Source: a virus (Duplodnaviria > Heunggongvirae > Uroviricota > Caudoviricetes). Taken from it: a stretch of DNA of 23,814 bases. The notes under the pieces are model-generated. The model saw nothing but the letters and a program-made list of their open reading frames with translations, had not been told where the DNA came from and ran no database searches. The stretch is taken from IMG/VR virus record IMGVR_UViG_2563366942_000005, positions 1-23,814 of that record, one strand, 5' to 3'. Position numbers and translations under genes: made by a program. Shown here one piece after another: positions 5,277 to 23,814 of this stretch (position 1 is its first letter; each line of letters begins with the position of its first letter).

Positions 5277-5554
5277 CGTTGATGGGCTTTTTATGCTGTT
5301 TATTACTGTTTATTTTTATTAATTAACTGAAATAAATAAGAAAAAACAATTTGCATTTCACTATAAAAAATTCCAGGTCCTTCAGAACCCTTTGAGACCC
5401 TTCCAGTCCGGATGGATAAAAAACACACAGCCATTGTAAGGTTGCCGGAACAAATTCCCCCTGTTGCGTCTGCTGAAAATATTCACAAAATAAAGCGCTA
5501 CCCGAAGCCGGACGGACTTATCCGGTGCTGTATGGACATTAACGAGGTAGCCCG

Positions 5555-5821: not shown

Positions 5822-6210
5822 TGATGCCCGCTCTGCAAAAACTCCCTTTTTCTGGCTTGCCTTTTTCCGGCATTTGCGGATATAGTTTTTCCGCTGCCGC
5901 AAAATCGGCAGCCGGGCGTAGGAACCCGTGTAACTCGAAGGCGACATATGACGCGCCATGCGTCTTTTTTTGTGTCGCAATCAACGCCACAGAGCGCCAG
6001 ATTATGGTGTGGCGTGTGGTTTGCCGTGCAGGTATGATCCTGTTCGCAATCGCATGTTATGCCACTGAGTCAATGGTAGCTCAGGCGGGGCAGCCTCCGG
6101 GCTGGCCGGTATTCTTCGAGGCCGGTATTCCTACCCCCGTCTGGGCTATCGCCATCGAGCGTAGGAACTCCGGCGATAGCAGTTATTTGCTACTCGAAGG
6201 AGACTGCCTT

Positions 6211-6408
6211 ATGGCTACAACCCTTACCCCTTCACACCCTGAATTTGTCTTTGTGTTTGCGGCTGTCCGTCGCGCAGACCGTCATCCCCGTATCTGCATG
6301 CTTCGCACCGTCGCCGGTGATGAACGCAGCGCCCGCCGTTCCCTTGTCCGTGACTATGTGCTCTCCCTTGCTGCCCGTCTGCCGGTGGTGGAGGTGTCCC
6401 GTGCGTAA
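6211..6408 (+). CDS. Small hypothetical protein (65 aa) in the satellite early/immunity region
   Basis: ATG at 6211 preceded by AAGGAG. Its stop overlaps the GTG start of the next ORF. The upstream part of the 211-aa six-frame ORF containing it has a non-protein-like composition and is not called. Confidence 0.35.
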
Positions 6409-6688
6409 TAAAAAAGCCCCTCAGACCGTCTCAGCACGTCATGACGCCCGTGAACACCTCAGCATTGAGGCTTACCATAAGCTCAACCGCGCCAGCGCCG
6501 TATCCCAGTTTGTTGGGGGTGATTTGATTCACCGTGAACTCTCCGGCCTGCATCAGCTCTACATTCCGCATATTTTCAGCTACCTGAATGAAGATATTGA
6601 TTTTGTGCTGAATGAGCTGAAAGCCAAAGGCCTGTGCCGCGATTTTCTCGCCCAGCAGAAAGACCGGGGAGACAGGACGCATGTTTGA
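6401..6688 (+). CDS. Small early protein, epsilon-like by position (possible helper-derepression protein); start uncertain (GTG 6401, or upstream ATGs at 6356/6320/6245)
   Basis: ORF immediately upstream of the 151-aa and 106-aa genes and alpha. A GTG start coupled to the preceding stop gives 95 aa. The assignment rests on position and size only. Confidence 0.4.
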
Positions 6689-7136
6689 TTTTCCCCAGCC
6701 CGGTGAGATTTACCGTTCTGCCGGTTTTCCCGATGTGGCCGTGGTCGGCATTCTGGAAGACGGTATTCCGTGGGAAATGCCGTACCGCTGCCCGGAAATT
6801 GTCTGGAACCCGTACCGCCGTAAATTCAGTATCCTTGTGCGTATCCTCGCTGACGGGCGCACCACAGACATCCCGCTGGGGCGTTTTCTGCGGGAATTTA
6901 CCTGTGACCGTCCTGACCTGTTCAGACGCAGCCCCGTAAACCGGCATGCGGTACTGAAAGAAATGGCCGGAGACCCGGAATTACAGAAATGGCGGGAGAA
7001 ATATCTGGATATTTACCCGCAGGACCCTGTTCCGGTCAGCCGGGCGGCACCGGTGGCGCGGGAATGGCGGGAAATTCCCCGCACGGAGCCTGACCCGGAA
7101 ATCACCCCGGATAACAGTTACCGCAATTATCTGTAA
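6681..7136 (+). CDS. P4 orf151-like early protein
   Basis: 151-aa ORF with GGAGA upstream of the ATG, overlapping the previous stop. Size and position upstream of orf106/alpha match P4 orf151. Confidence 0.6.
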   Translation: MFDFPQPGEIYRSAGFPDVAVVGILEDGIPWEMPYRCPEIVWNPYRRKFSILVRILADGRTTDIPLGRFLREFTCDRPDLFRRSPVNRHAVLKEMAGDPELQKWREKYLDIYPQDPVPVSRAAPVAREWREIPRTEPDPEITPDNSYRNYL

Positions 7137-7271
7137 TTAAAAAACGACACCCGAAAAATTAAATGTGCGTATTCGCGCAGGGATACGCACGTCTTCAGGA
7201 GACGCAGATATGCCTTATCAGTTAATGCAACCGGCACGGAATGCAGTCATCTGTCACAGGGAGGAAAGCAA

Positions 7272-7592
7272 ATGAAAACACCCTTACCGCCCGTCTTACG
7301 CGCAGCCCTTTACCGTCGTGCTGTCGCCTGTGCCTGGCTGACCGTGTGCGAACGTCAGCACCGCTACCCGCATCTCACCCTTGAATCACTGGAGGCGGCC
7401 ATCGCCGCTGAGCTGGAAGGCTTTTATCTGCGCCAGCACGGTGAGGAAAAAGGGCGTCAGATAGCCTGTGCCCTGCTGGAAGATTTAATGGAATCCGGCC
7501 CCCTGAAGGCCGCGCCGTCGCTGTCCTTTCTCGGGCTGGTTGTGATGGATGAACTCTGTGCCCGTCACATAAAAGCGCCGGTACTGCACTGA
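7272..7592 (+). CDS. P4 orf106-like protein (possibly Cnr-like copy-number regulator)
   Basis: 106-aa ORF with a strong Shine-Dalgarno sequence (GGGAGGAAAG) immediately upstream of alpha. The Cnr identity is from memory of P4 literature and was not verified. Confidence 0.55.
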
Positions 7593-7606
7593 AGGAGAAC
7601 AACACC

Positions 7607-9940
7607 ATGAAAATGAACGTAACCGCCACCGTCAGCCATGCGCTCGGCCACTGGCCGCGTATTCTCCCGGCGCTGGGGATTCAGGTGCTGAAAAACCGTC
7701 ATCAGCCCTGTCCGGTCTGTGGCGGGAGTGACCGCTTCCGTTTTGATGACAGGGAGGGGCGCGGCACCTGGTACTGCAATCAGTGTGGTGCCGGTGACGG
7801 CCTGAAACTGGTTGAAAAGGTGTTTGGTGTCTCCCCGTCCGACGCGGCCACAAAGGTGGCTGCCGTGACCGGCAGCCTGCCACCGGCTGACCCGGCAGTG
7901 ACGACCGCCGCCGTTGCTGAAACAGACGCTGCCCGGAAGAACGCCGCCACACTGGCACAAACCCTGATGGCGAAAACCCGTACCGGAACCGGTAACGCCT
8001 ACCTGACCCGCAAGGGCTTTCCCGGCCGGGAATGCCTGATGCTGACCGGCACACACAGAGCCAGTGGCGTGAGCTGGCGCGCCGGTGACCTTGTGGTGCC
8101 ACTGTATGACGACAGCGGCGAACTGGTTAACCTTCAGTTAATCAGTGCTGACGGCCGTAAGCGCACCCTGAAAGGCGGACAGGTCAGGGGCACCTGTCAC
8201 ACCCTTGAAGGACAGAATCAGGCCGGAAAACGTCTGTGGATAGCGGAGGGATACGCGACCGCACTTACCGTGCATCACCTGACCGGTGAAACGGTGATGG
8301 TGGCGCTTTCTTCCGTGAACCTCCTTTCTCTGGCCAGCCTTGCCCGGCAGAAGCATCCGGCCTGTCAGATTGTCCTTGCCGCAGACCGTGACCTCAGCGG
8401 TGACGGCCAGAAAAAAGCCGCCGCAGCCGCAGATGCGTGTGAGGGTGTTGTTGCCCTGCCGCCGGTCTTCGGTGACTGGAATGATGCCTTCACGCAGTAC
8501 GGCGGGGAAGCCACCCGTAAGGCCATTTATGATGCCATCCGGCCACCGGCTGAAAGCCCGTTCGACACCATGAGCGAAGCGGAGTTTTCCGCCATGAGTA
8601 CCAGCGAAAAGGCCATGCGTATCTATGAGCATTACGGCGAGGCGCTCGCGGTCGATGCCAACGGCCAGCTTCTGTCCCGCTATGAAAATGGTGTCTGGAA
8701 GGTGCTGCCGCCACAGGACTTTGCCCGGGATGTGGCCGGGCTGTTTCAGCGTCTGCGCGCGCCGTTCTCCTCCGGGAAGGTGGCCTCCGTGGTGGACACC
8801 CTGAAGCTGATTATTCCGCAGCAGGAAGCCCCCTCCCGCCGCCTGATTGGCTTTCGTAACGGCGTGCTCGACACGCAGAACGGTACGTTCCACCCGCACA
8901 GTCCGTCACACTGGATGCGCACCCTGTGCGATGTGGATTTCACCCCGCCGGTGGACGGTGAAACGCTGGAAACCCACGCTCCCGCGTTCTGGCGCTGGCT
9001 TGACCGTGCTGCCGGTGGTCGTGCGGAAAAACGCGACGTGATTCTGGCCGCACTGTTTATGGTGCTGGCAAACCGCTACGACTGGCAGCTCTTTCTGGAG
9101 GTGACCGGTCCCGGCGGCAGCGGCAAAAGTATCATGGCCGAAATAGCCACCCTGCTGGCCGGGGAGGATAACGCCACATCGGCCACCATTGAGACGCTGG
9201 AATCCCCGCGTGAACGTGCCGCGTTAACTGGCTTCTCACTGATACGCCTGCCGGACCAGGAAAAATGGAGCGGCGACGGTGCCGGACTCAAGGCCATCAC
9301 CGGCGGCGATGCGGTGTCCGTTGACCCGAAATACCGGGATGCATACTCCACGCATATCCCGGCGGTAATTCTGGCCGTGAACAATAACCCGATGCGCTTC
9401 ACCGACCGCAGCGGCGGCGTGTCACGCCGGCGGGTGATTATTCACTTCCCGGAACAGATAGCCCCGCAGGAGCGCGACCCGCAGCTTAAGGACAAAATCA
9501 CCCGCGAGCTGGCGGTCATCGTGCGTCACCTGATGCAGAAGTTCAGCGACCCGATGCTCGCCCGGTCACTGCTTCAGTCCCAGCAGAACTCAGACGAGGC
9601 GCTGAACATCAAACGGGATGCCGACCCAACGTTTGATTTTATCGGCTATCTGGAAACCCTGCCGCAGACCAGCGGCATGTATATGGGGAACGCCAGTATC
9701 ATCCCGCGCAATTACCGTAAATACCTCTATCACGCCTATCTGGCCTACATGGAGGCAAACGGCTACCGGAATGTACTCAGTCTGAAAATGTTCGGGCTGG
9801 GGCTGCCGGTGATGCTGAAGGAATACGGACTGAATTACGAGAAGCGCCATACCAAACAGGGGATACAGACCAACCTGACGCTGAAAGAGGAAAGCTACGG
9901 CGACTGGCTGCCAAAATGTGACGACCCTGCAACAACCTGA
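7607..9940 (+). CDS. alpha: Alpha protein: bifunctional primase-helicase with origin-binding domain
   Basis: 777 aa, the same length as P4 alpha. It has an N-terminal zinc-binding primase motif (CPVCGGSDRF...CNQCGAGDG), a Walker A motif in the central helicase domain (GPGGSGKS) and a C-terminal DNA-binding region. Confidence 0.95.
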   Translation: MKMNVTATVSHALGHWPRILPALGIQVLKNRHQPCPVCGGSDRFRFDDREGRGTWYCNQCGAGDGLKLVEKVFGVSPSDAATKVAAVTGSLPPADPAVTTAAVAETDAARKNAATLAQTLMAKTRTGTGNAYLTRKGFPGRECLMLTGTHRASGVSWRAGDLVVPLYDDSGELVNLQLISADGRKRTLKGGQVRGTCHTLEGQNQAGKRLWIAEGYATALTVHHLTGETVMVALSSVNLLSLASLARQKHPACQIVLAADRDLSGDGQKKAAAAADACEGVVALPPVFGDWNDAFTQYGGEATRKAIYDAIRPPAESPFDTMSEAEFSAMSTSEKAMRIYEHYGEALAVDANGQLLSRYENGVWKVLPPQDFARDVAGLFQRLRAPFSSGKVASVVDTLKLIIPQQEAPSRRLIGFRNGVLDTQNGTFHPHSPSHWMRTLCDVDFTPPVDGETLETHAPAFWRWLDRAAGGRAEKRDVILAALFMVLANRYDWQLFLEVTGPGGSGKSIMAEIATLLAGEDNATSATIETLESPRERAALTGFSLIRLPDQEKWSGDGAGLKAITGGDAVSVDPKYRDAYSTHIPAVILAVNNNPMRFTDRSGGVSRRRVIIHFPEQIAPQERDPQLKDKITRELAVIVRHLMQKFSDPMLARSLLQSQQNSDEALNIKRDADPTFDFIGYLETLPQTSGMYMGNASIIPRNYRKYLYHAYLAYMEANGYRNVLSLKMFGLGLPVMLKEYGLNYEKRHTKQGIQTNLTLKEESYGDWLPKCDDPATT

Positions 9941-9956
9941 CCCTCATAACTCATCT

Positions 9957-9980
9957 GACCGGCATCTGCCGGTCTTTTTT
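9957..9980 (+). terminator. Putative intrinsic terminator downstream of alpha
   Basis: GC-rich hairpin GACCGGCATCTGCCGGTC followed by TTTTTT, 17 nt after the alpha stop codon. Confidence 0.6.
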
Positions 9981-9998
9981 CATCCCTGAATCCCCCGA

Positions 9999-10275
9999 AG
10001 GTGAACAATCCACTGTTCACCCTTCACCGTATATTCACCAGTTATCACACTGAAATTAAAAGAGAAAAACGAAAGGTGAACAGTGTGAACAATCAAATCA
10101 AAAAAAACTTTTTTCTTCCTGAGTGATTTCAGTGCGGAGGATTAATCACCGGTATGAGTCACACCGGCAGAATGCCGGAGGTGAAGAATCGAATGTTCAC
10201 CCTTCACCCATTATTCACCACCTATCACTCTGAAATAAAAGGAGAAAACAGAAAGGTGAACAGTGTGAACAGTTC
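9999..10275. repeat. Tandem direct repeat (two imperfect units of about 100 bp, period about 180 bp), each carrying TGTTCACC/GGTGAACA iterons plus an A-tract/T-tract; crr-like cis replication region
   Basis: Unit 1 (about 9999-10100) and unit 2 (about 10179-10280) align along their length. Full octamers lie at 10000-10007, 10014-10021, 10075-10082, 10194-10201 and 10255-10262, with degenerate copies between. Each unit ends in an A8/T6-type tract. Confidence 0.7.
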
Positions 10276-10484
10276 TTTCGAAAAAAAATTTTTTATGTGG
10301 ATAAAAGATGCACTGGTTTGGATCCGAGCTACGGATCCAAACTTACTGATTAAAAATGATTTAACTTTCCGATTTATTGATGGGCTGAAAATAGATTGGT
10401 CAGAAAAACAGTGGGGGCACAAAAGGGGGCATATTTCATTGTTGTGTTTTATTATTTGTTTTTTATCATTAACTTATTTTGATG

Positions 10485-10506
10485 TTTGAGTCCGGCCTTC
10501 GCACCA
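10485..10506 (+). other. attR: partial direct repeat of a tRNA-Leu 3' end (integration-site core)
   Basis: TTTGAGTCCGGCCTTCGCACCA closely resembles the 3' end of E. coli leuX tRNA (TTCGAGTCCGGCCTTCGGCACCA, from memory), with no tRNA body upstream. The position just past alpha/crr is where attR is expected. Confidence 0.6.
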
Positions 10507-10895
10507 CATCGTATGCAAATCGAGTCGCTCAAGGGCGGCTTTTTTTGTGCCTGTGTTTTCACTACTTTGTTTGTATGTAACGCTGATAATCTAAGAACTT
10601 CGGAAGCCCCATTCCCATCAATGATGTTCATTCATCATCCTGAAAATTAAGTAGATATAAAACTTCATTGCCTTGGTCTAATGGCTCAGGAAATAGATTG
10701 CATTTAGCGAGTGGCATTCTTAATGTGCCATTGTTTAGCCATGAAACGATGCGTAAAATTGCTGATTTTATGTGTCAAAGGCCCGCAACCGGAGATGTCC
10801 TTACTTCAAGGATCAACCACTATTGGCGTATCCTTTTACTATCTTGATTCAATTCAGCAGGTTATCGTCAAAAGTACAGCGAAGAGAGAGAAAAG

Positions 10896-13787
10896 ATGAT
10901 TGGTACAACACCTTATCATGCGAAATATTTTGCGCATGAACTTTCCATTCTCCATTCAAACAATGGGGTGGACCGTCTGTCTCAATCGCTGTTTGATGCA
11001 AGCGTAGATCTAAATCCTCATCAAATTGAGGCGGCTCTTTTTGCTATTGAAAATCCGCTAAGCAAAGGTGTTGTGCTTGCCGATGAAGTTGGTTTAGGTA
11101 AAACCATTGAAGCGGGGTTAGTGCTTTGCCAGTTGTGGGCTGAAAGAAAACGTAAACTGTTGATCATTTGTCCTGCTTCACTGCGTCGCCAATGGGCGAG
11201 CGAGTTACAGGAAAAGTTCAATCTACCTTCTCAGGTGTTGGACGCGAAAACGTATAGCCAGCTTCAAAAAGAAGGGATCCATAATCCCTTAAATAATAAA
11301 TCGATCACTATCATGTCATACCACTATGCTGCTCGGTTAGAAGAAAAATTGGTGGCTGAAATGTGGGATCTGGTTGTTATCGACGAAGCCCATAAACTGC
11401 GTAATGCTCATCGAGAAAGTAACAAAATGGGGCAAGCGTTAAAGCGTGCGCTTGATGGGCGGAAAAAATTACTACTGACCGCAACGCCTTTACAGAATTC
11501 GTTAATGGAACTGTATGGCATGTCGACGCTTATAGATGAACATACCTTCGGCGAAGTTAAAGCGTTCAGAAAGCAATATATGCAGGCAGATAGCGATATT
11601 GCGGAGTTGAAGGGGCGATTGTCGCGTTTTATCAAACGAACTTTACGCAAGAATGTGCTGGAGTACATCAAGTATACAGAACGTAAAGCGATCACTATTC
11701 CTTTCTATCCGAGCGAACAGGAGCAGGATCTTTATGAACGCGTACAAAAATTGCTTGAACGTGAGGATAGCTATGCCTTACCAAAACGACACCGGCATCT
11801 GACGGGGCTTATTCTCAGAAAGCTACTTTCCTCAAGTACGAAAGCTGTATTGAATAACTTGCAGATCCTTAAGAGTCGTTTAGAAAGGTTAAAGCTGGAA
11901 GGTATCGTTGAAGATGATATGAACATCATCCAACAGATCATAATGGATGACGATCTTGAAGATGACATCGTGGAAGATGCCGAATCAGTGGCTTTAGATA
12001 CCGAGTGCAAAGTTGTCGATTCAGACGCGCTTCAGGCAGAAATCAATGAGCTGGAATCACTCATTGTCAAAGCAGAACAGATTGGCACTGATACCAAATC
12101 AAAAGAGTTGCTTTCTGGCCTGGAGCAAGGTTTTGCACAGCTTGCCGAAATGGGGGCTGCAAAAAAAGTCATCATCTTCACGGAGTCAATGCGAACTCAA
12201 CAGTATCTTGCACATTTTCTGGAAAACAATGGCTACCAGGGGAAAGTAGTAACCTTTAGTGGCACAAACAATACACCGCAGGCAAACAAGATCTACCAGC
12301 AATGGCGCGAGGAATATCAGGGATCTTCTCGTATTACCGGGTCGGCGCAAATTGATAAACGCTCGGCTTTGATCGACCACTTCAAAGATCATGCTGAAAT
12401 CATGATAGCTACAGAAGCTGCAGCTGAAGGGGTGAACCTGCAATTTTGTTCGCTACTGATCAATTACGATTTACCCTGGAACCCACAACGCATTGAACAG
12501 CGTATTGGACGTTGTCACCGATACGGGCAAAAATTTGATGTGGTTGTTATTAACTTCCTCAATCAGCGAAACCAGGCCGATCAACGCGTTCTTGAACTCT
12601 TAACTGAAAAGTTCAGCCTGTTTGATGGCGTGTTTGGCGCATCGGATAGTGTGCTTGGCAGCATAGAAAATGGTGTGGATTTTGAAAAAAGGATCCAGTC
12701 AATTTATGAGTCATGCCGTACCCCCGAGGAGATAGAGCTGGCTTTTGAAAGGTTGCAGAAAGAGCTGGAAGATGAAATCAATCTCAAGATGCAGAAGACG
12801 CAAGAACAGTTGCTTGAGCATTTTGATGAAGATATTCACGATATCCTTAAAATAAGGCTTGATGAAGCTCGGGAGCGTCTGGATAAAGTCGGTCGTTGGT
12901 TTTGGGCCGTGACCTGTCAGCAGCTCAAACAATATGCTGATTTTGATCATGAGCATCATCGTTTCACTTTACGTGAATCAGTAAATGAACTGCCTGTCGG
13001 GCAGTACCAGCTGTTGCGCAAAGATGGTAGGCAAAATAGTGCGTTACAAATGCAGGATCACCACAGTTTTGCATATCGGATCAATCATCCGCTGGGTGAG
13101 TACGTCATTGAGGGGGCTAAGGTCCAGGAGACGAAAACAGCTGAAGTCATCTTCGATTACAGTAACCACACAACGAAAGTCTCGGTGGCTGAGCAGCTGA
13201 AAGGGCAATCAGGGTGGTTAACACTAAATTTGCTTACTGTTGATGCGTTTAACAGGCAGCAATTTTTAGTCTTTACCGCAAAAACTGACAACGGACGTGT
13301 GGTAGATGGTGAAGCTTGTAAACGTCTGTTCAACTTGTCTGCAATAACCAACGAAAAGCTGGATAATTCGGCAAGTTCAGATGCATTACCTGATGACTTG
13401 ATCTTACTCAAGAACAGGCAAATTGACGCCAGACTTGCGGAAGTTCTGGAGCAGAACAATGTCCTTTTTGAAGCTGAAAGAGATAAGCTGGAAAAATGGG
13501 CTGAAGATATGATCTTTGCGGCGGAAGAAGCATTACGCGATACCAAAATGCAAATCAAGTCGTTAAAGCGAGAAGCCAGACTGGCGCAATCGATGGAAGA
13601 ACAAAAGCAAAACCAGGAAAAGCTGAAGCTACTGGAACGGCAGCAGAAACGCCAACGTATGGAAATTTTTGACATTGAAGATGAGATCGCTGACAAGCGG
13701 GATGAACTCATCAGTGCCCTTGAAGAGCGGATGAAGCAAAAAACGGATATCACCGAGCTTTTTTCCATCCGCTGGAAAGTTATTTAA
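10896..13787 (+). CDS. SNF2-family (SWI2/SNF2) helicase/ATPase with about 400-aa coiled-coil-rich C-terminal extension; DrmD-like
   Basis: 963 aa with helicase motifs I (LADEVGLGKT), II (VVIDEAHKLRN), III (LLTATPLQNS) and VI (QRIGRCHRYGQ). It is the first gene of an AT-rich three-gene operon, with AGAGAGAAAAG upstream of the ATG. Confidence 0.9.
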   Translation: MIGTTPYHAKYFAHELSILHSNNGVDRLSQSLFDASVDLNPHQIEAALFAIENPLSKGVVLADEVGLGKTIEAGLVLCQLWAERKRKLLIICPASLRRQWASELQEKFNLPSQVLDAKTYSQLQKEGIHNPLNNKSITIMSYHYAARLEEKLVAEMWDLVVIDEAHKLRNAHRESNKMGQALKRALDGRKKLLLTATPLQNSLMELYGMSTLIDEHTFGEVKAFRKQYMQADSDIAELKGRLSRFIKRTLRKNVLEYIKYTERKAITIPFYPSEQEQDLYERVQKLLEREDSYALPKRHRHLTGLILRKLLSSSTKAVLNNLQILKSRLERLKLEGIVEDDMNIIQQIIMDDDLEDDIVEDAESVALDTECKVVDSDALQAEINELESLIVKAEQIGTDTKSKELLSGLEQGFAQLAEMGAAKKVIIFTESMRTQQYLAHFLENNGYQGKVVTFSGTNNTPQANKIYQQWREEYQGSSRITGSAQIDKRSALIDHFKDHAEIMIATEAAAEGVNLQFCSLLINYDLPWNPQRIEQRIGRCHRYGQKFDVVVINFLNQRNQADQRVLELLTEKFSLFDGVFGASDSVLGSIENGVDFEKRIQSIYESCRTPEEIELAFERLQKELEDEINLKMQKTQEQLLEHFDEDIHDILKIRLDEARERLDKVGRWFWAVTCQQLKQYADFDHEHHRFTLRESVNELPVGQYQLLRKDGRQNSALQMQDHHSFAYRINHPLGEYVIEGAKVQETKTAEVIFDYSNHTTKVSVAEQLKGQSGWLTLNLLTVDAFNRQQFLVFTAKTDNGRVVDGEACKRLFNLSAITNEKLDNSASSDALPDDLILLKNRQIDARLAEVLEQNNVLFEAERDKLEKWAEDMIFAAEEALRDTKMQIKSLKREARLAQSMEEQKQNQEKLKLLERQQKRQRMEIFDIEDEIADKRDELISALEERMKQKTDITELFSIRWKVI

Positions 13788-13807
13788 TTGATTTGAAAGA
13801 GAAAATA

Positions 13808-16800
13808 ATGAGTAAGTACAACGAATTAGTTAAGAAGCTAAAAGAAATTTTTCAGATTGATCGACCAGAACTGGATTTCGGTATTTATCGTATTTTAAAT
13901 GCACGTGCTGATGAAATTAACGACTATCTGGATAATAAGCTGAAGGCCAAAATCCAGTCTGCGCTGGCGGATGCAGGAAATGCCAATAAATCAGAATTAG
14001 AACATCAGTTGCAACTGACAATAAAAGCGGCAACTGATGCGGGTGTGGACCCTGCTGATAGCCCGAAAGTACAGGAGCTTAAAAAGCAACTGGCGGCTAT
14101 GGCATCCGGAGCAAATGAGCATGAAAATGCAGTATTTTCCCATCTGCTGACTTTCTTTTCGCGTTATTATGACAACGGCGATTTTATCAGCAAACGCCGT
14201 TATAAAGGTAATACCTACGCCATCCCTTATTCTGGCGAAGAAGTGATGTTGCACTGGGCAAATAAGGACCAGTACTACATTAAAAGCGGTGAAAACTTTG
14301 CTAATTATTCATTTAAATTAGATGATGGTCGTAAAGTTAGCTTTAAATTGCTCGCAGCGGACACAGCAAAAGATAACCGTAAAGATAATGAATTAGATCG
14401 CTGCTTTGTACTTATTGAGCCGCATGTTCGTACCAAAATTGATGAAGAAGGCGATGAGTACGAACAAGAATATAAGCCAGTAGAAGTGGTGAAAACTTCA
14501 TCTGTGGTTGACGGTAAACTCGTTGAAACAGAAGAGTTAGTTATTCACTTCGAATATAAGGCCATGAAAAAGGGCACTAAGCAGGATGCTTTAGTGCAGT
14601 CCGCTATTTCAACAATTCTGGCTGATAAAACAGTTCAACAGCATTGGGTTGATCTTGCTAAACGTGCGCCAACAGAAAAAAATCCGTCACGTACAGAGTT
14701 GGAGCGTCATCTTACAACTTATACCCAGCGTAATACAGCAGACTACTTTATTCATAAAGATCTCGGTGGTTTTTTAACTAACGAACTGGATTTTTATATT
14801 AAAAATGAAGTAATGAATCTCGATAATGTGCAAAATGCAGAAGTGTTTGCCAATATTGAGAAACAATTGCGCATGATTCAATGTTTGCGTACTGTTGCGC
14901 TGGAACTCATTGCATTTTTGGCACAAATTGAGAATTTCCAGAAGAAACTTTGGACTAAGAAGAAGTTTGTTGTTTCAAGTAATTACTATATTACTATGGA
15001 CAAAATAAGTTCAGAGTTTTACAGTGAAATAATTAATAATGAAAAAATAGTCCAAGAATGGATTGAATTAGGCATCTTAGATGAGAAGCCATCTACCTCT
15101 GATGTGGAGTTGCTCAAGTTTGCAACAGTTAATTTATCTCATTTAAACGGAGATCTAAGGAAAAAAATATTAAATAGTATCAATGATATTGACGATAATG
15201 TTGATGGCGTTTTTATTAATGGTGATAATTATCAAGCGTTAAATCTTTTGAAGAAAAATATAATTCCGTAATTGATTGTGTCCATATAGATCCACCATAT
15301 AACACAGATACTAGTGGTTTTTTATATAAAAATAGCTTTAAGCATTCAAGTTGGCTGAGTATGATGGATAGCCGTTTGCTTTTTGTTAAAAATTTACTCA
15401 GTGAAAATGGTGTATTTTTTTGTCATATTGATGAAAATGAATATGAGCGACTTTATTTAATTAATAAACAGTTAGGTCTTATCGATGCAGGGACAATTAT
15501 TTGGGATAAACGCAATCCCATGAATGGTGGTAGTGGCATTGCGATTCAACATGAATATACTACTTGTTTTACAAAGAACATGATTTCTATTAATAAGAAA
15601 AATGAGAATGTATTAGAAATACTCGAATATGCAAAATTAATTAAGAATAAATATCCTGTAATTAACAGTGAAGCAAAGAAAAAATTTTATGATTGGGTAA
15701 CAAAGAATAAAAAACTTACTGGAGGTGAACAAGCTTACAAATATATCGATGAGAAAGGTCGAGTGTACCAGAGTGTCAGCCTCCGTGCCCCAGAGCCAAG
15801 GACTGACAAGAAATTCTATATACCATTAATTCATCCAGTTACCGGGAAACCATGCGCTATGCCACCAAATGGTTTTTCTCGTACCCCAGAAACATTAAAA
15901 GATATGATGGATAAGGGGGATATACTATTTGGTGTTGATGAAACAACGCAACCTAGACAGAAAGCATATTTATATGCTGACGCTAAAAAGCAAATAACAT
16001 CAATAATTCAGGATGCTAAAAAAGGAAAAACTCAAACAACTCATCTTGGAATTGATTTTCCTTATTGTCACTCAACTTCTTTATATAATTATTTAATTGG
16101 GAGTGCATCTCATAATAAAAATGAGATAATATTAGATTTTTTTGCTGGTTCAGGAACAAGTGGCCACTCAGTCATAGAGTTGAATCGTAAGGATGCGGGT
16201 TCAAGGAAATATATACTTGTTGAACAGGGGGAGTATGCACAAAATGTAACTTTAAGCAGGTTGAGAAAAGTTATATTCAGTAGCAATTGGAAAGATGGTA
16301 AAGCTATGGATTCAACGACAGGCTCATCTCATATACTTAAAGTTATGAAAATAGAAAGTTACGAAGATGTATTAAATAGCCTTCGATTTGAACAACAAAA
16401 AGAAATAAAAGATCTTTTTGATACAGTGAATGAATCAGTAGCAAATGAGTATTTAATAAAATATATGCTTGAAACAGAAAGCAAAGGTTCACTACTCAGT
16501 ACTGATAATTTCAAAAAACCATTTAACTACGAAATGGATATTGCGACGGATTCCGCCGGTGCCACTGAGCGTAAAAACATCGATTTAGTTGAAACTTTCA
16601 ACTATCTCATTGGTTTACATGTGAAATCCATCGAATCCAATATCGAACGTGGCTATGTGCGTGTTGAAGGAATGCTACCAACAGGCGAGCGTACCCTTAT
16701 TCTGTGGCGCGATTGCGACAAGATCGGTTATGAAGAATTGAATAAATATGCCAGCCGATTCGATTTATATGCAAAAGAAAACACGTTCGACGTTATCTAT

Positions 16801-16929
16801 ATCAATGGCGATCATAACTTACCTACCGCCTTTACCGTTGATGAAGAAGACGGCGAGATTGTTCGTAGCCTGAAAATCCGCCAGATCGAACCTGAATTCT
16901 TGAACCTGATGTTTGCGGAGGAGGTTTAA
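13808..16929 (+). pseudogene. Large beta-class N6-adenine DNA methyltransferase (about 1040 aa if fused), split by a frameshift near 15229-15271
   Basis: The N-terminal ORF (frame 2) ends at 15271 just after ...GDNYQALNLLKKN. Frame 1 is open from 15229 and reads SVIDCVHIDPPYN (motif IV, DPPY) and then DFFAGSGTSGHSVIELN (motif I, FxGxG). The two halves are one methyltransferase with the frame shifted inside an A-rich stretch (GAAGAAAAATATAAT). Start ATG taken at 13808 (MSKYNEL...). Confidence 0.8.
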
Positions 16930-17291
16930 GAATGGCTAAAAAACCAACCACCGGTAAAGCTGTTAAAAAAGAGACAAACAGCAAACTGAGCTTTCATAAG
17001 CAACTGGTTTTGAACCGCTTTATGTTCCATTTTTTTAAAGATGGCACATTGCAAGGTTTAAAGAATCGGTTAGGTGAAGATCGCTTTGAAGGCATCCATG
17101 AAGATGGCCAAAGCTTGTTCTTCCATGAGCTGAGTAACTATTTATTCGAGGTCGATCTTATCGATCTCGATGAACTGCGTCGTTACGATCTCAATATCGT
17201 ACAGCACTGGCAGCAGATAACTGAGCACCGTAATCGGGTGATGCTGCCAACTTACTGATTTAGTGTATGATGGTGTTTTTGAGGTGCTCCA

Positions 17292-17567
17292 GTGGCTTCT
17301 GTTTCTATCAGCTGTCCCTCCTGTTCAGCTACTGACGGGGTGGTGCGTAACGGCAAAAGCACCGCCGGACATCAGCGCTATCTCTGCTCTCACTGCCGTA
17401 AAACATGGCAACTGCAGTTCACTTACACTGCTTCTCAACCCGGTACGCACCAGAAAATCATTGATATGGCCATGAATGGCGTTGGATGCCGGGCAACTGC
17501 CCGCATTATGGGCGTTGGCCTCAACACGATTTTACGTCACTTAAAAAACTCAGGCCGCAGTCGGTAA
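17292..17567 (+). CDS. insA: IS1 InsA (transposition inhibitor / N-terminal part of InsAB' transposase)
   Basis: 91-aa protein [42 protein letters not shown]..., matching IS1 InsA. Confidence 0.95.
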
Positions 17568-17989
17568 CCTCGCGCATACAGCCGGGCAGTGACGTCATCG
17601 TCTGCGCGGAAATGGACGAACAGTGGGGCTATGTCGGGGCTAAATCGCGCCAGCGCTGGCTGTTTTACGCGTATGACAGTCTCCGGAAGACGGTTGTTGC
17701 GCACGTATTCGGTGAACGCACTATGGCGACGCTGGGGCGTCTTATGAGCCTGCTGTCACCCTTTGACGTGGTGATATGGATGACGGATGGCTGGCCGCTG
17801 TATGAATCCCGCCTGAAGGGAAAGCTGCACGTAATCAGCAAGCGATATACGCAGCGAATTGAGCGGCATAACCTGAATCTGAGGCAGCACCTGGCACGGC
17901 TGGGACGGAAGTCGCTGTCGTTCTCAAAATCGGTGGAGCTGCATGACAAAGTCATCGGGCATTATCTGAACATAAAACACTATCAATAA
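17486..17989 (+). CDS. insB: IS1 InsB reading frame (expressed as InsAB' transposase by -1 ribosomal frameshift)
   Basis: 167-aa ORF matching IS1 InsB (...[50 protein letters not shown]...). It overlaps insA in the -1 frame. Confidence 0.9.
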
Positions 17990-20900
17990 GTTGGAGTCAT
18001 TACCCGTAATCGCAAAGAAGACACCGTGCTGAATATGAAATATTTTCAGTACTTGTCGCTTCTGTTTACCGAGATCTACCTGGACTGGTACTTCAATCGT
18101 AAACAGCAATTACTCGATGGGCTAAATAACGAGCTGGCAGCATACAATGCTGAAAATGATAAAACAGCAAAAGACCGGGCTAATCAGTTCAAATCATACA
18201 TTCTAGATGACTTGAATAAACTTGCATACTGGAACGCTACCGGTTCGGGTAAAACACTGCTATTGCATGTCAATATTTTGCAATATTTACATTATTTCCA
18301 GAACGGTAATACCCACCATTACCCGGATAAAATCATCCTGCTTACGCCGGATGAACGCCTGTCGAAGCAACATTTAGATGAGCTGGAAAACTCAGGATTT
18401 ACCCAATACCAGTTATTCGATAAGAGTAAATCTGCGCCCTTCAAAGGCACGATTGAAGTTATTGATATCAATAAACTTGCCGATGAAATGGGTGACAAAA
18501 CTGTTGCCGTTGAGGCATTTGAAGGCAACAATCTGGTTCTGATTGATGAAGGGCATAAAGGCACCGGAAGTGCTGCTGGTGCCTGGATGCGCCGTCGTGA
18601 CAAATTAACACGTGACGGATTTGCGTTTGAATATTCAGCAACTTTTGGCCAGGCAGTAGCCGGTGGCAATAATGTTGAGGCAGTTGAAACAGAAATTCAG
18701 AAGAAAAAAGCAAAGCTGCTTTTTGAAACAACGGCCTTAGGTAAACTGAACGAAGAAGAGTTAGCGCAAATAGCATTAACCAGCGAAGAAAAACGAGATG
18801 CGCGTATTCAGGCGACGCGAGAGGTCTATGGAAAATCGATTCTGTTCGATTACTCCTATAAATTCTTCTATGAGGATGGTTATGGTAAAGAATCACTGAT
18901 TCTTAACCTTAATCCTGAAGAGGATAAAAAAGATGAGCGTCGGTATGAGTATTTTACCGCGTGTTTGCTCAGCTTTTATCAGCAACAATATTTATTCAAT
19001 AAGAATAAAGAAAAATTAAGTGAATTTAATATCGAAAAACCGCTGTGGGTTTTTGTCGGTAATACGGTAAGTGGTGAAGATTCAGACATTCACGCAGTAT
19101 TGCGTTTTTTAGCATGGTTTTTAAACCACGAAACGCAGGCAAAAGCGTGGATTAACGATCTCATTAAAAATAAAGCGCGAATCCTCGATACCAAAGAGCG
19201 TAACATTTTTGAAAATCGCTTTACTGCACTAATGAACGCTCCGGAAGATATCTACGCAGATATTCTTTCTCGCTTGTTTAACACCACTCACTCTGGTCAG
19301 CGACTGCGAGTTCTGAATTTAATAGGCAGTAAAGGTGAACTGGCATTACAGGTTGGTGAGGCCGAACCGTTTGGCCTTATCAATATTGGTGATGCACCGT
19401 CTCTTTACAAAATGTGTGAAGAGGATACGACATTTGATTATCAGAGAGATGATTTTGCAAAGTCACTCTTTCATACGTTAAATGACAAAGACTCGCGACT
19501 ACATATTTTGATCGGCTCGCGAAAATTTACTGAAGGCTGGAGCAGTTGGCGCGTCTCAACGATGGGATTGCTCAATATGGGCCGTGGAGAAGGTTCACAG
19601 ATCATTCAGTTATTTGGTCGTGGCGTACGCCTTAAAGGTCGCAATTATTCTTTGAAACGCAGTACACCCGGTGAGCGTCCGAAAGGGTTGCATCTGGAAA
19701 AATTAGAGACACTGAATGTATTCGGTGTACGTGCCGATTACATGGCAACCTTTAAACAATACCTGGAAGATGAAGGGATTACGCCAAGTGACGAGATCCT
19801 TGAGCTGAATTTTGAAACTCGGCCAAATATGCCAGCAACCAGGCTTAAAACACTTAAGCTTAAAGATGGTTATAAAGATAATCAAAGACTCGGCTTTAAA
19901 CGTGTCTATTTTCCCGAATTGTATGAAGTTCCTGCTGATTTTCAGGGGAAAATTAAGCAGCCGCATATTAAGCTGGACTTATACCCGAAACTTGAGTCGA
20001 TTGATACCAGCAGAAAAGGGGACAATACTCCGGTTAACGTGCGCAATGAAGCGAAGTTAGATTATAAAATCATTAGTGCATTTGATTTTGATCGGCTTTA
20101 TCTCGCCATTCAGAATTATAAACTACAACGCGGCTGGTCAAATTTACGTGTGGATAAACAACGTTTGATCGACTTTTGTACCGGTAAGACAAAGATCGGA
20201 AATAGTTGGTATACCCTTTTGATTCCAGCTTCAGAGCTTGAGATTAAGCAATATGCAGATATTGCTAAGCAGGAAGATATTATGCTTCGTCTGCTGACTG
20301 ATTATACTGATCGCTTTTACAACACCTTGAAAAATGCTTATGAAGGTCAGTTTTATGAAGTCACGCAGGTGAAAGAAGATGATCCTGGTATGATCAAAAT
20401 GTACCATTTCGAGATCGAAGAAACTGATGATGGGTTGGCTTATGCCAGTCGGCTGGAACAATTACAACAATTGGTCATCGACGGCGAAATCGGTAAAGCA
20501 AAATCCTGGAGTGCATCCGGGATGGTTGCTATTACCTTTGATAAACATCTCTATTACCCGCTTCTTTCGATTGAAAAAAATGCCAATATACCGCTAAAAA
20601 TGCGACCGGCAGCACTTGGTGCGCCAAGCGAGATTACTTTTGTTCAGGATCTTCAGTCTTTTGTTGATTCGACAAAAGGGCAGAAAATTATTGGTGATAA
20701 AAGTTTATATCTGCTAAGAAATGCGGATTCTAAAAATAAAGGCCTGGGCTTTGCTACTGCGGGTAATTTTTATCCGGATTTCTTATTGTGGTTAGTCGAT
20801 GATAAAAGTGGTAAACAATGGCTAAGTCTTATTGATCCAAAAGGCATTCGCAATCTTAATCTTGATGATCCGAAGTTCGGATTATATAAAGAAATTAAGA

Positions 20901-21100
20901 ATCTTGAACATAAATTATCGGATGATAACTTATCATTAAGTGCATTTATTGTTTCTGAAACTTGTTATGTTGACTTAGTAAACGTACCTGACTCAAAAGA
21001 AAATCTGGAAGCCAGAAATGTGCTTTTTATTGAGGATACAGGCCCCGTTTATCTGGAGAAGTTATTCAGTAAGATGGTTAGCGAGTAAATAATTATGATT

Positions 21101-21131
21101 CTGTTCCATATCTCTGTGAGATATGGAACAG
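21101..21131. terminator. Strong hairpin between convergent genes (likely bidirectional terminator)
   Basis: CTGTTCCATATCTC-TGTG-AGATATGGAACAG forms a 13-14 bp perfect stem. It lies 13 bp after the operon's last stop codon and immediately after the stop of the minus-strand 100-aa ORF. Confidence 0.6.
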
Positions 21132-21134
21132 ATA

Positions 21135-21437
21135 TTATCGCCAATGTGCAGGAATAATTAGGTCAAACGATTTTGCTGCATATTCAAGCATTTTTATTAT
21201 TTCCCTGTGTCGTTCCTGGTCGAACGGCTGTCCATTTTTTCTACACTCTATAATCCCTTGTAACTCTTTTAGGTTAAACATATCAAGAAGATAAAAGTTT
21301 TTCCATGTTGGTTGCCCGAAGAGGTTATAGACTGTTTCTGTAGCATCTCTCTCACTTGCTAATCTTTTCTCTCCGTCTATTTTTTCAAAAAATATTTCAG
21401 CTGTTTCTTTATCATCATAAGTATTTAACAATTCCAT
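21135..21437 (-). CDS. Hypothetical small protein (100 aa), AT-rich orphan
   Basis: ORF of 100 aa (MELLNTYDDKETAEIFFEKIDGEKR...) on the strand opposite to the operon. It is AT-rich and has no recognisable motif. Confidence 0.45.
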   Translation of the reverse strand: MELLNTYDDKETAEIFFEKIDGEKRLASERDATETVYNLFGQPTWKNFYLLDMFNLKELQGIIECRKNGQPFDQERHREIIKMLEYAAKSFDLIIPAHWR

Positions 21438-21749
21438 TATGATTTTCCTGATTAATGAATTGATATCACGATAATTATATCATGAATAGATGTAAATTTA
21501 CTATGTATATAAATTAGTGTACAATTCAACATGCCAATTGTTTTTTAATTTGTAATTTCGATTGGTTAATAACTGGATTCTCTTATAATGAATATATATT
21601 TACTCTGACTAGAATATTTGTAAACGTATTTTATATTGAGATTTTAAAATTGATTTGTGGCTATGTACTCATAAATACTACTTTCGGTGTCAGAAAATAC
21701 TTTATCTATTACATTTAAAATCCTAGGTGAAAGATATATAATGGCTACC

Positions 21750-22622
21750 TCACCCCCTAAAAACCTCTTTTCGATGCCACTCCACAAACCCCTCAAAAGG
21801 GTAATTTTTACGCACCTGTGGCAACGCAATAGTTTTCCCGTCAAAATCCCAGAATAATCTCTCAACGATCCCTCCGCCGTTTACCGCATCCGAGACCAGT
21901 ACCCGCATATTTTCATCCAGGCCAATCGATCCTTTATCAAAGGCTTTATGGTGTATTGCGCAAAGCGCCAGACCATTGGGGATTTCACAAGGGCCGCCGT
22001 GCTGTTTCCATTTTATATGCGCCGCTTCCAGCGCGACGGTGGTGTCGTCGTGGCGCATATTAAAGCCACATATCGCGCACTGGTAGTTATAAGCGCGTAA
22101 TACATTTTTGCGAAATAACGGGTCGCGCTGTTTACGGATTTGCTGGAGATCAAAACCCAGCTCGTCAGCAATTTCTTCCTGAATACTCTCGGTGAAGTGC
22201 GCTTCGAGTATCTGTTGCGCCAGAGTATTGATGAGTTTTTTATTGCCGGTTACCAGGGCGTAGTGCTGTTCATCGAAACCGCCTGCAACGTGGTATTCGT
22301 TCAGTTCCTTCACTGGCGGTTGTCGGCTGCTCCCTGCTGTTGAGCAAAGCTCGGCATTGTGTAATTGCCAGAATCCGTCGCCTTGTAATCGCCAAAACGG
22401 CATATCAGGTCGGTACTGTGAACGCTGTGGCCCAAAACGTTCCAGTAAACTGTGCAGAGGTTCGTAGATTTCCGATCCATAATCGAAAAGGCGTGGATGT
22501 CCATTCAGGTATCCCGCTAATACGTATAGCAATAACAATGGTTTATGCGGTGCGCGCTGTTCACCCTTATGCCAGATTTTTATATTGGCAATTGCCTGCT
22601 GTAGCGATTTACTGGAAGCCAT
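21750..22622 (-). CDS. HNH-motif endonuclease with N-terminal uncharacterised domain (candidate modification-dependent/Type IV-like restriction nuclease); start taken at the Shine-Dalgarno-supported ATG (MASSKSL...)
   Basis: The C-terminal region carries an HNH signature (YQCAICGF...ALEAAHIKWKQHGGP...NGLALCAIHHKAFDKG). The six-frame ORF extends to a TTG at 22679, but AGGGA precedes the ATG at 22622. Confidence 0.75.
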   Translation of the reverse strand: MASSKSLQQAIANIKIWHKGEQRAPHKPLLLLYVLAGYLNGHPRLFDYGSEIYEPLHSLLERFGPQRSQYRPDMPFWRLQGDGFWQLHNAELCSTAGSSRQPPVKELNEYHVAGGFDEQHYALVTGNKKLINTLAQQILEAHFTESIQEEIADELGFDLQQIRKQRDPLFRKNVLRAYNYQCAICGFNMRHDDTTVALEAAHIKWKQHGGPCEIPNGLALCAIHHKAFDKGSIGLDENMRVLVSDAVNGGGIVERLFWDFDGKTIALPQVRKNYPFEGFVEWHRKEVFRG

Positions 22623-22833
22623 TGATATCCCTGGCAGTGAAATAATTGCGATCATGCTCGCAAATTTTCTGCTGTTCAAGCCTGCAAGTGAAGATATATT
22701 ACCTTGATCTCATTTGTTTTTTTGCTGCCTGTGTGCCCTAATTGCCATGCGATGTTGCACCGACGCAAACCACCGTTTATGCCGGAGGAGTTAAAAGCGC
22801 TGATGGATGCGAATAAATCAAATTAATGAACGC

Positions 22834-23814
22834 TCACCTTTCGCGCCAAAACTGCAAAATTGCTTCTACAAACCTGTCAGAAATAATCCCTCGACGGGCT
22901 GCCGCGCTGAAATGACTGCTTCGCAGTGCCGTCGTCCAGTTCTCCGGTGACCGGTACGCTGAACCGTAATATCCCGTGCTTAAATCGTCCGGGTCTTCAT
23001 CAGGCGCGTTCGTCAGTCCTCTTTCACCTTGTTGCTGGAAGTCGACGAAAATAATATTGGCTAAAACATTATTTTGATAATTGCCATAAATAGCTTCATA
23101 CGCATGAGGGAAATTTTCTTTCCAGTACCAGGTGGTATCGCCGCAAAACCAGGGCGCATCAGTAATATTATTAAGCTGAGAATGGTATTGTTTTAGATCC
23201 CTACGAAAGGCTTCAACCATATGATTAAAGTGTTGAGGGTGTGACGCGTAGTCACTGGTCATTAAGTCAAATTCGCCTTGCATCCAGCATACGCCGAGGA
23301 ATTTGTTCTGCGGATTTTTTGTCAGTGCGGCTCGCGTTCTGCTGACTAAATCCTGGTATAGCGGAGTATCCGTTCCCCAACGACAAGCATCATGGCTGGC
23401 TCCGTGCCGTTCTGAATATGTCCCTTCGCTGCCCGCGGTAAAAGCCGATCCGCCACGGCAACACGGAACGATGAGAACCCCTGCGTTATCAGGAATAAAG
23501 GGCAGTAATTTCCGTGCAATATGCAGTGCCTGGCCAACGGTGCCGTACTGTGTTTGATGATTCGTTGCCAGAGGATGGTGATAACCCTGCATATCCTGAA
23601 CATCGTGTGGGCAGTGAGTCAGTGGAATAATGTCGTTAAAGTGACATGACGGGCCTCCGGGATGCGTATGCGCAAATCTCGCTAATTGTTTAATTCTGGG
23701 ATGAGGCGCATCTTCCCTGTCCGGTAATGGCAGTCCTTCGCCATACGCCATGGCATTAGACTGACCAGCAACGGTAAGAACATAGTAATAATCAGGCGAT
23801 ATTATTGCGTTCAT
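22834..23814 (-). CDS. nanS: Sialate O-acetylesterase NanS/YjhS-like protein (core-genome flank)
   Basis: 326-aa ORF (MNAIISPDYYYVLTVAGQSNAMAYGEGLPLPDRE...) recognised as E. coli YjhS/NanS-like from memory. It has SGNH-type esterase character (GQSN motif near the N-terminus). The start codon is at the window edge. Confidence 0.75.
   Translation of the reverse strand: MNAIISPDYYYVLTVAGQSNAMAYGEGLPLPDREDAPHPRIKQLARFAHTHPGGPSCHFNDIIPLTHCPHDVQDMQGYHHPLATNHQTQYGTVGQALHIARKLLPFIPDNAGVLIVPCCRGGSAFTAGSEGTYSERHGASHDACRWGTDTPLYQDLVSRTRAALTKNPQNKFLGVCWMQGEFDLMTSDYASHPQHFNHMVEAFRRDLKQYHSQLNNITDAPWFCGDTTWYWKENFPHAYEAIYGNYQNNVLANIIFVDFQQQGERGLTNAPDEDPDDLSTGYYGSAYRSPENWTTALRSSHFSAAARRGIISDRFVEAILQFWRER

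Follow-up and report, generated by a model that had tools for sequence, protein, structure and literature searches.

The question raised by this locus is why the last gene of a predicted defence operon carries a copy of IS1: loss of the gene may have been favoured, a shortened product may still be made, or the operon may simply be decaying. The DNA analysed, referred to as the window, is 23,814 nucleotides long. A preliminary description of it had suggested that loss of the restriction component may have been selected. It is very probable instead that an active IS1A element entered the last gene of a three-gene operon that was already non-functional, and that the insertion was neutral.

Organization of the operon

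The operon (the triad) encodes, in this order, a DrmD-like SNF2 helicase, a beta-class methyltransferase of 1040 residues and an SF2 helicase that has a PD-(D/E)xK-like motif in its C-terminal part. It has a GC content of 32-45%. The E. coli triad is conserved and is located just downstream of tRNA-leuX; a tRNA scan of the window found no tRNA gene, leuX being just beyond it. The first gene (10896-13787, plus strand) is intact. It encodes 963 residues with Pfam matches to SNF2-rel_dom (E 8.5e-37) and Helicase_C, and its translation is the same as that of E. coli B-2207. The protein matches the PADLOC DrmD model PDLC02619 with an E value of 1e-199 and scores 667 bits against NCBIfam DISARM_DrmD_b, below the cut-off of 950. 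This SNF2 gene is found immediately upstream of the methyltransferase gene, mod, in E. coli, Salmonella and Serratia. The gene that follows the triad is on the opposite strand, so the insertion has no downstream polarity. A conserved convergent ORF of 100 residues is present beside the triad.

The methyltransferase gene

The second gene (13808-16929, plus strand) encodes a beta-class N6/N4 DNA methyltransferase, which is 1040 residues long when intact and is divided here by a -1 frameshift into pieces of 487 and about 521 residues. The frameshift lies in a homopolymer, A5 at 15254-15258 (plus strand), which is A6 in intact alleles according to the alignment to MS 21-1 and F163. The loss of one base falls at about codon 482, 13 codons before the DPPY motif, and adding one A back recreates the 1040-residue ORF. 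The two pieces match positions 1-489 and 524-1057 of the PADLOC model MTase_III PDLC03646. In the intact allele, PF01555 covers residues 489-812, with DPPY at 495 and FAGSG at 779, as in a beta-class Mod.

Among 34 complete genomes with the allele region, the exact A6 version is present in 31 and A5 in none. Twenty-two fetched loci, taken from independent assemblies, have the A5 tract; it is therefore unlikely that the window alone contains a sequencing error in the homopolymer. The earlier statement that the methyltransferase is also broken is thus borne out.

The third gene

The third gene starts 2 nt past the methyltransferase stop codon and is preceded by a GAGGAGG Shine-Dalgarno sequence. 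Its 5' part (16932-17236, plus strand) contains codons 1-101 and 2 further nucleotides. The 3' part (18013-21088, plus strand) encodes the SF2 motifs ATGSGKT, DEGH, SAT and QLFGRGVR, and a C-terminal nuclease-like motif, PDF...IDPKG. The ORFs that flank the insertion are 16932-17258 (108 aa) and 18026-21088 (1020 aa, with a GTG start).

When IS1 and one copy of the repeat are deleted, a reading frame of 3381 nt without internal stops is obtained, encoding 1126 residues (...ITEHRNRKEDTVLNMKYFQ...). The restored protein and its intact counterpart in E. coli B-2207 do not differ at any residue; the latter is annotated as WP_001085525.1 in B-2207, NCTC86 and E24377A. The exact protein occurs on at least 1000 contigs. 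Homologues of about 1125 residues are found in Salmonella, Yersinia and Serratia, and a search at E<=1e-30 gave 780 clusters, of which the 150 that were listed have lengths of mostly 1000-1130 residues. The distribution of the exact protein and the length of its homologues indicate that the gene is natively a single one. The two ORFs are halves of it, as had been proposed, and not natively separate genes.

The restored protein is matched from end to end by the PADLOC model REase_III PDLC03654 (2326 bits), and its Pfam matches are ResIII and DEAD only. Helicase motifs I, II, III and VI and the PDF...(D/E)P(K/H)G motif do not vary among 34 homologues with 33-59% identity. Searches of the PDB by sequence and by profile found no meaningful relative, and the AlphaFold2 model of the intact protein, built on an alignment of 23 sequences that are 88-93% identical, is unusable (pLDDT 32, pTM 0.25). 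Judged from its motifs, the protein is likely to be a helicase of the SF2 class that carries a PD-(D/E)xK-like nuclease motif toward its C-terminus.

The IS1 element and its target site

The element is 768 bp long (17237-18004, plus strand), belongs to the IS1A type and is oriented in the same direction as its target gene. Its termini are GGTGATGCTGCC... and ...GGAGTCATTACC. The inverted repeats, IRL at 17237-17259 and IRR at 17982-18004, are imperfect (GGTGATG... and GGTAATG...) and match at 18 of 23 positions. Two frames on the plus strand are present, insA (17292-17567, 91 aa), with the Pfam domains Zn_ribbon_InsA and HTH_Tnp_IS1, and the insB' frame (17486-17989), with DDE_Tnp_IS1 at E 6e-78. 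They are joined by an A6C programmed -1 frameshift site (17543-17549, plus strand) into an open 232-residue InsAB' transposase. The Pfam accessions matched in the element are PF03811, PF12759 and PF03400, and NCBIfam transpos_IS1 matches as well. A product of 232 residues is also annotated at this position in the source assembly (L004). Elsewhere in E. coli there are copies that match the element with 100% identity, and their annotation is IS1A family. Of 5426 genomes, 4951 contain IS1, the median copy number being 11.

The octamer CGTAATCG occurs only twice in the window, at 17229-17236 and 18005-18012, directly on either side of IS1; a given 8-mer would recur by chance at a fixed position with a probability of 1.5e-5. 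The complete element with both terminal repeats and an 8-bp target duplication is therefore as the preliminary description gave it. Identity extends over 9 bp (CCGTAATCG at 17228 and 18004), the last C of IS1 being the same as the base that precedes the repeat. The true duplication is 8 bp and not 9, because alleles without IS1 have a single copy of the octamer at the empty site. The usual IS1 duplication is 9 bp. Duplications of 8 bp were reportedly documented for IS1 by Iida et al. in 1981; a literature search on 8-bp versus 9-bp duplications of IS1 returned nothing relevant.

The comparison with IS1-free alleles that had been recommended yielded exact empty sites, 776 bp shorter. A 3201-nt query aligned over 2425 bp (3201 minus 776) with 99.8-100% identity in 12 listed complete genomes. 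Two contigs, L017 and L018, do not contain IS1 and are 100% identical to the flanks at 10482-17236 and 18004-23814, with no SNPs across 12.5 kb. The identity of the flanks supports the earlier view that the insertion is recent. The 108-residue product that is specific to the junction is present in 37 blocks of the public collection, including two NCBI assemblies and several gut metagenomes, and the IS1 allele occurs with two different leuX-integrated elements upstream. The allele has consequently spread; this could be due to hitch-hiking or to a benefit.

Order of events

The A5 frameshift occurs together with an intact third gene of 1126 residues in four contigs, L014, L015, L017 and L018, and every contig that carries IS1 has the A5 tract. 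L017 and L018 are otherwise identical to the window. Because A5 is found with an empty site and an intact third gene, the methyltransferase must have been broken before IS1 arrived; the contigs demonstrate, at the level of sequence, that the frameshift arose first and on the same haplotype.

Subsequently, a copy of IS1A would have transposed into codon 102/103 of the third gene, the staggered cut giving rise to the 8-bp duplication. The insertion would have split the 1126-residue gene into a stub of 108 residues and a promoterless 3' remainder, and the gene is presumably null now. The operon was probably non-functional at that time, since type III-like systems depend on Mod to recognise DNA. 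The insertion into a dead operon was then likely to be neutral, because a Res without Mod would be harmless by type III logic; it would reflect the abundance of IS1 and its preference for AT-rich DNA rather than selection against the nuclease. Neutral decay in AT-rich DNA is, we infer, the simplest reading of the insertion. If IS1 were lost by precise excision between the 8-bp repeats, a rare event, the Res-like ORF would be regained and the methyltransferase would not.

Alternative explanations

Since IS1 is present in many copies and is a frequent breakpoint of short-read contigs (many contigs end in IS1), its position at 17237 might be attributed to a repeat-induced assembly misjoin. However, a 516-kb scaffold with 100% identity to the window contains both junctions and the perfect duplication, and the left junction is seen again in many independent assemblies and metagenomes, which makes a misjoin exceedingly improbable. 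A different alternative is that function is kept. The preliminary description allowed for reinitiation at GTG 18026 or ATG 18035, and read-through or a hybrid promoter at the IS1 end might give rise to a truncated protein from which residues 1-106 or 1-109 are missing. The helicase and nuclease motifs are all downstream of the insertion, IS1 and the gene point in the same direction, a weak Shine-Dalgarno-like element, AAGAAG, is located 5 nt before the GTG, and the source assembly annotates a 1017-residue ORF from the ATG. Nevertheless, a scan of 17700-18300 found no sigma-70-like promoter, and no terminator either, and inspection of the right end of IS1 by hand found TTGGAG as a -35 element and no acceptable -10. 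The residues missing from the GTG product include L25, L27, L82 and R100, which are conserved in the family, and the Mod partner is frameshifted in any case. IS1 insertions are, moreover, classically polar. A functional truncated product is therefore very unlikely.

Selected loss of the restriction component deserves more weight and is still improbable. According to this explanation, the frameshift left the genome unmethylated and open to attack by its own Res-like nuclease, so that knock-outs by IS1 were favoured. The modification and restriction genes are indeed both broken on the same haplotype, and the presence of the IS1 allele in at least 37 collection blocks and in two upstream contexts can be read in the same way. 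A5 has persisted in several independent contigs in which the third gene is intact, and this argues against it. Type III Res, furthermore, cannot find DNA without Mod (PMC4490356). Other strains have taken the same course without losing the nuclease gene: in MS 21-1 the methyltransferase gene has a frameshift of independent origin (A7 to A6), and in E54, LAU-OXA, WP4-S18-ESBL-09 and 300444 the methyltransferase or SNF2 gene carries an independent lesion due to IS1, IS1F or IS100, the third gene being intact in all of these strains. These lineages, at least five in number, indicate that loss of methylation is tolerated and that selection against the nuclease need not be invoked. Cleavage by type III enzymes depends on ATP and on two unmethylated sites in inverse orientation, and their Res is inactive without Mod; the alleles that combine a defective Mod with an intact Res lend indirect support to such a property here. 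The dependence of the Res-like protein on its Mod is assumed from the canonical type III enzymes, with which it shares sequence similarity in the helicase motifs only. The nuclease might also reach DNA independently of Mod, through the intact SNF2 partner, and this would count against neutrality.

Implications

The IS1 event is of an ordinary and already known kind, the routine decay of a dead system, and involves no new mechanism. Inactivation by IS1 with a target duplication is textbook knowledge and the allele is already in public assemblies, so its value as a discovery is small. For annotation, 16932-17258 and 18026-21088 should be treated as one IS-disrupted pseudogene and 13808-16929 as a frameshifted methyltransferase pseudogene, and the strain should not be scored as having an active type III-like system. 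The locus is a clean example of the stepwise decay of a defence operon, in which modification was lost first and the nuclease later, with the pre-insertion haplotype available for comparison.

Comparison with known systems

The triad resembles the type III restriction-modification systems EcoP1I and EcoP15I in several respects. A res gene follows mod and is tightly coupled to it; Mod is of the beta class, with DPPY, a target-recognition region and FxGxG in this order; Res has SF2 motifs toward the N-terminal end and a C-terminal PD...(D/E)xK-like motif; and both proteins are matched over their full length by the PADLOC models for type III Mod and Res. In type III enzymes Mod recognises DNA, and Res hydrolyses ATP and cuts (PMC4490356). 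The triad differs in that its Mod is about 400 residues longer and that no Pfam family matches the N-terminal region of this Mod. Beyond the helicase motifs, the third protein has no significant homology to EcoP1I Res (BLASTP E 0.012, motif VI only; hhalign probability 3% with P1 Res), even though its match to PDLC03654 is full length. The conserved DrmD-like SNF2 gene directly upstream of mod also sets the triad apart from a two-gene mod-res unit.

The combination of a DrmD/ArmA-like SNF2 helicase, an adenine methyltransferase and a large helicase-nuclease in the leuX defence island is reminiscent of class 1 DISARM and ARMADA. ARMADA comprises a YprA-like DUF1998 helicase with a Vsr nuclease, a PglX-like methyltransferase and a BrxHII/RapA-like helicase (10.1101/2025.09.15.676423, PMC13463889). 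The triad has no YprA/DUF1998 helicase (DrmA/DrmB, ArmC), no PLD nuclease (DrmC) and no GajB-like ArmD, and its methyltransferase is of the type III-like PF01555 family, not PglX-like. Assignment to class 1 DISARM (DrmA, DrmB and DrmC with DrmD and DrmMI) was rejected because the triad contains neither DUF1998 nor PLD and its DrmD_b score is below the cut-off; ARMADA types I and II were rejected in view of the Pfam matches of the third protein, ResIII/DEAD only, and the PF01555 methyltransferase.

A literature search for a system that combines SNF2 with type III components found no description. It is conceivable, and we put it forward tentatively, that the triad is an uncharacterised hybrid defence module rather than a plain type III system, in which a long type III-like Mod and a Res-like helicase-nuclease require a DISARM-type SNF2 protein as their partner; the convergent 100-residue ORF may belong to the module as well. 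The natural alleles (intact triad, A5, A5 with IS1, and IS-disrupted SNF2), several of them on near-identical haplotypes, would then be ready-made isogenic knock-outs for its dissection. The IS1 insertion would still be ordinary.

A precedent for the insertion is found in phage P1, in which mod749::IS5 (EcoP1I; AF234172, 4-bp duplication) is likewise an insertion in a gene of a Mod/Res system that is tolerated by the host. There, IS5 is in mod; here, IS1 is in the res-like gene and mod was already frameshifted. The closest parallel is the inactivation of genes by IS1A in E. coli and Shigella, with which the present case shares the length of the element, the partly matching repeats, the insA and insB' frames with their A6C frameshift site, a short target duplication in an AT-rich target and a null allele. 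It differs in the duplication of 8 bp instead of the more usual 9 bp, and in nothing essential.

The IS1 element and the gene that it interrupts

The third gene of the operon, encoding a Res-like helicase-nuclease, is interrupted by a 768-bp IS1 element at 17237-18004. Direct reading of 16800-18300, together with a script, gave GGTGATGCTGCCAACTTACTGAT as the first and ATCAATAAGTTGGAGTCATTACC as the last bases of the element; a script check showed that 18 of the 23 positions of its inverted repeats are identical. The octamer CGTAATCG is present on both sides of IS1 (17229-17236 and 18005-18012), and a script scan detected no further occurrence of it in the 23,814-bp window. The 91-aa insA product (17292-17567) matches Pfam Zn_ribbon_InsA and HTH_Tnp_IS1, and the overlapping insB' frame (17486-17989) matches DDE_Tnp_IS1 (E 6e-78). 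Both products match NCBIfam transpos_IS1, and an A6C slip site at 17543-17549 gives an open 232-aa InsAB'. The intact IS1 with target duplication that the preliminary description had reported is thus confirmed base for base. Other E. coli genomes have IS1A-family copies that are 100% identical to this one. Among the 5,426 complete genomes, 4,951 carry IS1, and the median copy number is 11.

Deletion of IS1 and one repeat fuses 16932-17236 with 18013-21088 into a 3,381-nt ORF free of internal stops. The restored 1126-aa product does not differ at any position from the intact protein of B-2207, annotated as WP_001085525.1 in B-2207, NCTC86 and E24377A, which bears out the proposal that the two flanking ORFs are one native gene. 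The exact intact protein is found in at least 1000 contigs. With a 3,201-nt query taken from around the site, the matches in complete E. coli genomes extend over 2,425 bp, exactly 776 bp less, at 99.8-100% identity. Two empty-site contigs, L017 and L018, match the window with 100% identity over 10482-17236 and 18004-23814 and contain one copy of CGTAATCG. They represent the pre-insertion haplotype, and because of this identity the insertion is recent in sequence terms, as had been suggested.

Occurrence of the insertion

Scaffold KE136749.1 of NCBI assembly GCA_000407965.1 is 100% identical to the window. The public collection has 37 blocks with the 108-aa product specific to the insertion junction, which shows the insertion to be real and in circulation. 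IS1 at this exact site was found in none of the 5,426 complete genomes. The IS1-bearing haplotype, 100% identical over the equivalents of 10482-17360, lies behind two different leuX-integrated elements, a P4-like satellite and a CP4-like island with CbtA/YeeU toxin-antitoxin genes, as a comparison of contigs L007 and L010-L012 with L004 and L005 shows. Either the leuX occupant was replaced after the insertion or the region was moved by recombination.

The methyltransferase frameshift and the order of events

The methyltransferase gene is broken, as the preliminary description had it, by the loss of one A from an A6 tract. The resulting A5 (15254-15258) shifts the frame at about codon 482, 13 codons ahead of the DPPY motif; when one A is put back, a 1040-aa ORF is obtained, which differs from the B-2207 protein by one residue. 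This allele region is carried by 34 complete genomes; the in-frame A6 sequence occurs in exact form in 31 of them, and A5 in none. It is unlikely that A5 reflects a homopolymer sequencing error confined to the window, since independent assemblies and metagenomes gave 22 fetched loci in the identical A5 state and the 487-aa product of the A5 allele is recorded in 60 blocks. Every IS1-bearing contig has A5. In L014, L015, L017 and L018, A5 is combined with an unoccupied site and the 1126-aa gene is intact. The frameshift therefore predates the arrival of IS1.

Strain MS 21-1, whose methyltransferase allele is nearly identical to that of the window, has an independent A7 to A6 frameshift at the equivalent of 15161-15167, 90 nt upstream of A5, and an intact third gene. 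Two homopolymer frameshifts this close hint at slippage-prone sites; A6 and A7 tracts are short for true phase variation.

Decay of the operon

Selection for loss of the restriction component had been suggested as the cause of the insertion. Other E. coli strains bear on this proposal. In E54 the SNF2 gene is disrupted by IS100 and the methyltransferase gene by IS1, LAU-OXA has IS1 close to the 3' end of the methyltransferase gene, and in WP4-S18-ESBL-09 and 300444 IS1- or IS1F-associated deletions have taken out the SNF2 gene together with the 5' part of the methyltransferase gene. These independent lesions always fall in the SNF2 or methyltransferase genes, and the third gene is intact in all four strains. 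The operon is a repeated target of IS-mediated decay; its GC content of 32-45% makes it AT-rich, the kind of DNA favoured by IS1. Since MS 21-1 and the four IS-hit strains keep the third gene, loss of modification with the nuclease gene retained is common and tolerated. Selection may still have acted, but it is improbable and not needed to explain the insertion, and the claim of selected loss is not upheld. Neutral pseudogenisation of an already dead operon would be the simplest account. The tolerated loss fits type III logic, where Mod recognizes DNA and Res only hydrolyses ATP and cuts (PMC4490356).

The third gene closes the operon and its downstream neighbour lies on the opposite strand, so that there is no downstream polarity. 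A truncated product reinitiated beyond IS1 had been put forward as an alternative to loss of function. No sigma-70-like promoter was detected over the IS1 exit, GTG 18026 is preceded by only a weak AAGAAG element, and translation from this codon would leave out residues 1-106, including positions conserved in the family. These observations speak against reinitiation, and on them the interrupted allele is treated as a putative null. The event is an ordinary IS1 insertion. Of the earlier interpretation, what stands is the anatomy of IS1, the native unity of the split gene, the recent date of the insertion and the broken state of the methyltransferase; selection and reinitiation do not stand.

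The satellite prophage and neighbouring genes

The window consists of a P4-like satellite prophage at tRNA-leuX (1-10506) followed by native chromosomal DNA. The satellite contains int (1-1269), psu, delta, sid, an icd-like gene and an alpha-type primase gene (7607-9940), and ends in attR (10488-10506; GAGTCCGGCCTTCGCACCA), a copy of the leuX 3' end minus one G. Native leuX-downstream sequence starts at 10482, and in GPEC1222 these genes directly follow a tRNA-Leu gene. The defence triad is located outside the satellite, in native DNA. The AT-rich int-psu gap (1292-2697, minus strand, 34% GC) contains two genes, for a 313-aa RexA-like protein (Pfam PF15969, E 5e-11) and a 155-aa RexB-like protein (PADLOC RexB, E 7e-6), and looks like RexAB-type abortive-infection cargo. 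At this position QML220614 has two Ser/Thr kinases and a PP2C phosphatase instead. The triad is adjoined by a minus-strand gene (21750-22679) for an SBD-HNH protein, a ScoMcrA-like phosphorothioate-DNA-dependent restriction endonuclease (NCBIfam NF045808, E 1e-131), which is shortened in several other strains; no dnd or ssp modification genes are present in the window.

The operon and its relation to known systems

The operon encodes, in this order, a 963-aa SNF2 helicase, a 1040-aa methyltransferase and the IS1-interrupted 1126-aa protein. The helicase matches PADLOC DrmD (E 1e-199) and scores 667 bits against NCBIfam DISARM_DrmD_b, under the cut-off of 950. Pieces of the methyltransferase match PADLOC MTase_III PDLC03646; it is of the beta class (DPPY, residue 495; FAGSG, residue 779). 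Over its whole length the third protein, once restored, matches PADLOC REase_III PDLC03654 (2,326 bits). A minus-strand ORF of 100 aa without a family match (21135-21437) runs toward the end of the third gene and is perhaps a regulator or a fourth component. In Salmonella, as in one Serratia contig of two, an ORF of 100-101 aa has the same place and orientation beside the triad.

The triad and the convergent ORF are kept, in genomic surroundings that are unrelated, in Salmonella (2,236 collection blocks) and Serratia, and the triad therefore behaves as one mobile module. Identity across Enterobacterales is about 89-93%, a figure taken from the Res-like protein. The Enterobacterales triads (L033-L036) encode proteins of 963, 1041 and 1125 aa and occupy differing defence-island settings: the Salmonella triad adjoins a PLD-helicase and CcdAB, whereas that of Serratia adjoins a ScoMcrA-like SRA protein. 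Such a distribution suggests horizontal spread as a unit.

The third protein is a member of a large family (780 clusters at E<=1e-30) of proteins made as single polypeptides, mostly of 1000-1130 aa among the 150 clusters listed. Invariant in 34 members of 33-59% identity are ATGxGKT, DExH, SAT, QxxGRGxR and a C-terminal PDF, the last followed by (D/E)P(K/H)G. These motifs indicate a predicted SF2 helicase with a PD-(D/E)xK-like motif.

The triad is neither DISARM nor ARMADA because the DUF1998/YprA helicase, the PLD nuclease and the PglX-like methyltransferase are absent. No dedicated description of an SNF2-associated type III-like module was found in the literature searched, and no solved structure related to the third protein by sequence was found. 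The host operon, a mildly interesting by-product of this analysis, is such a module and is widespread. The predicted layout of the third protein, an SF2 helicase and then a PD-(D/E)xK-like motif, resembles that of type III Res, although the sequence homology to EcoP1I Res is confined to the helicase motifs.
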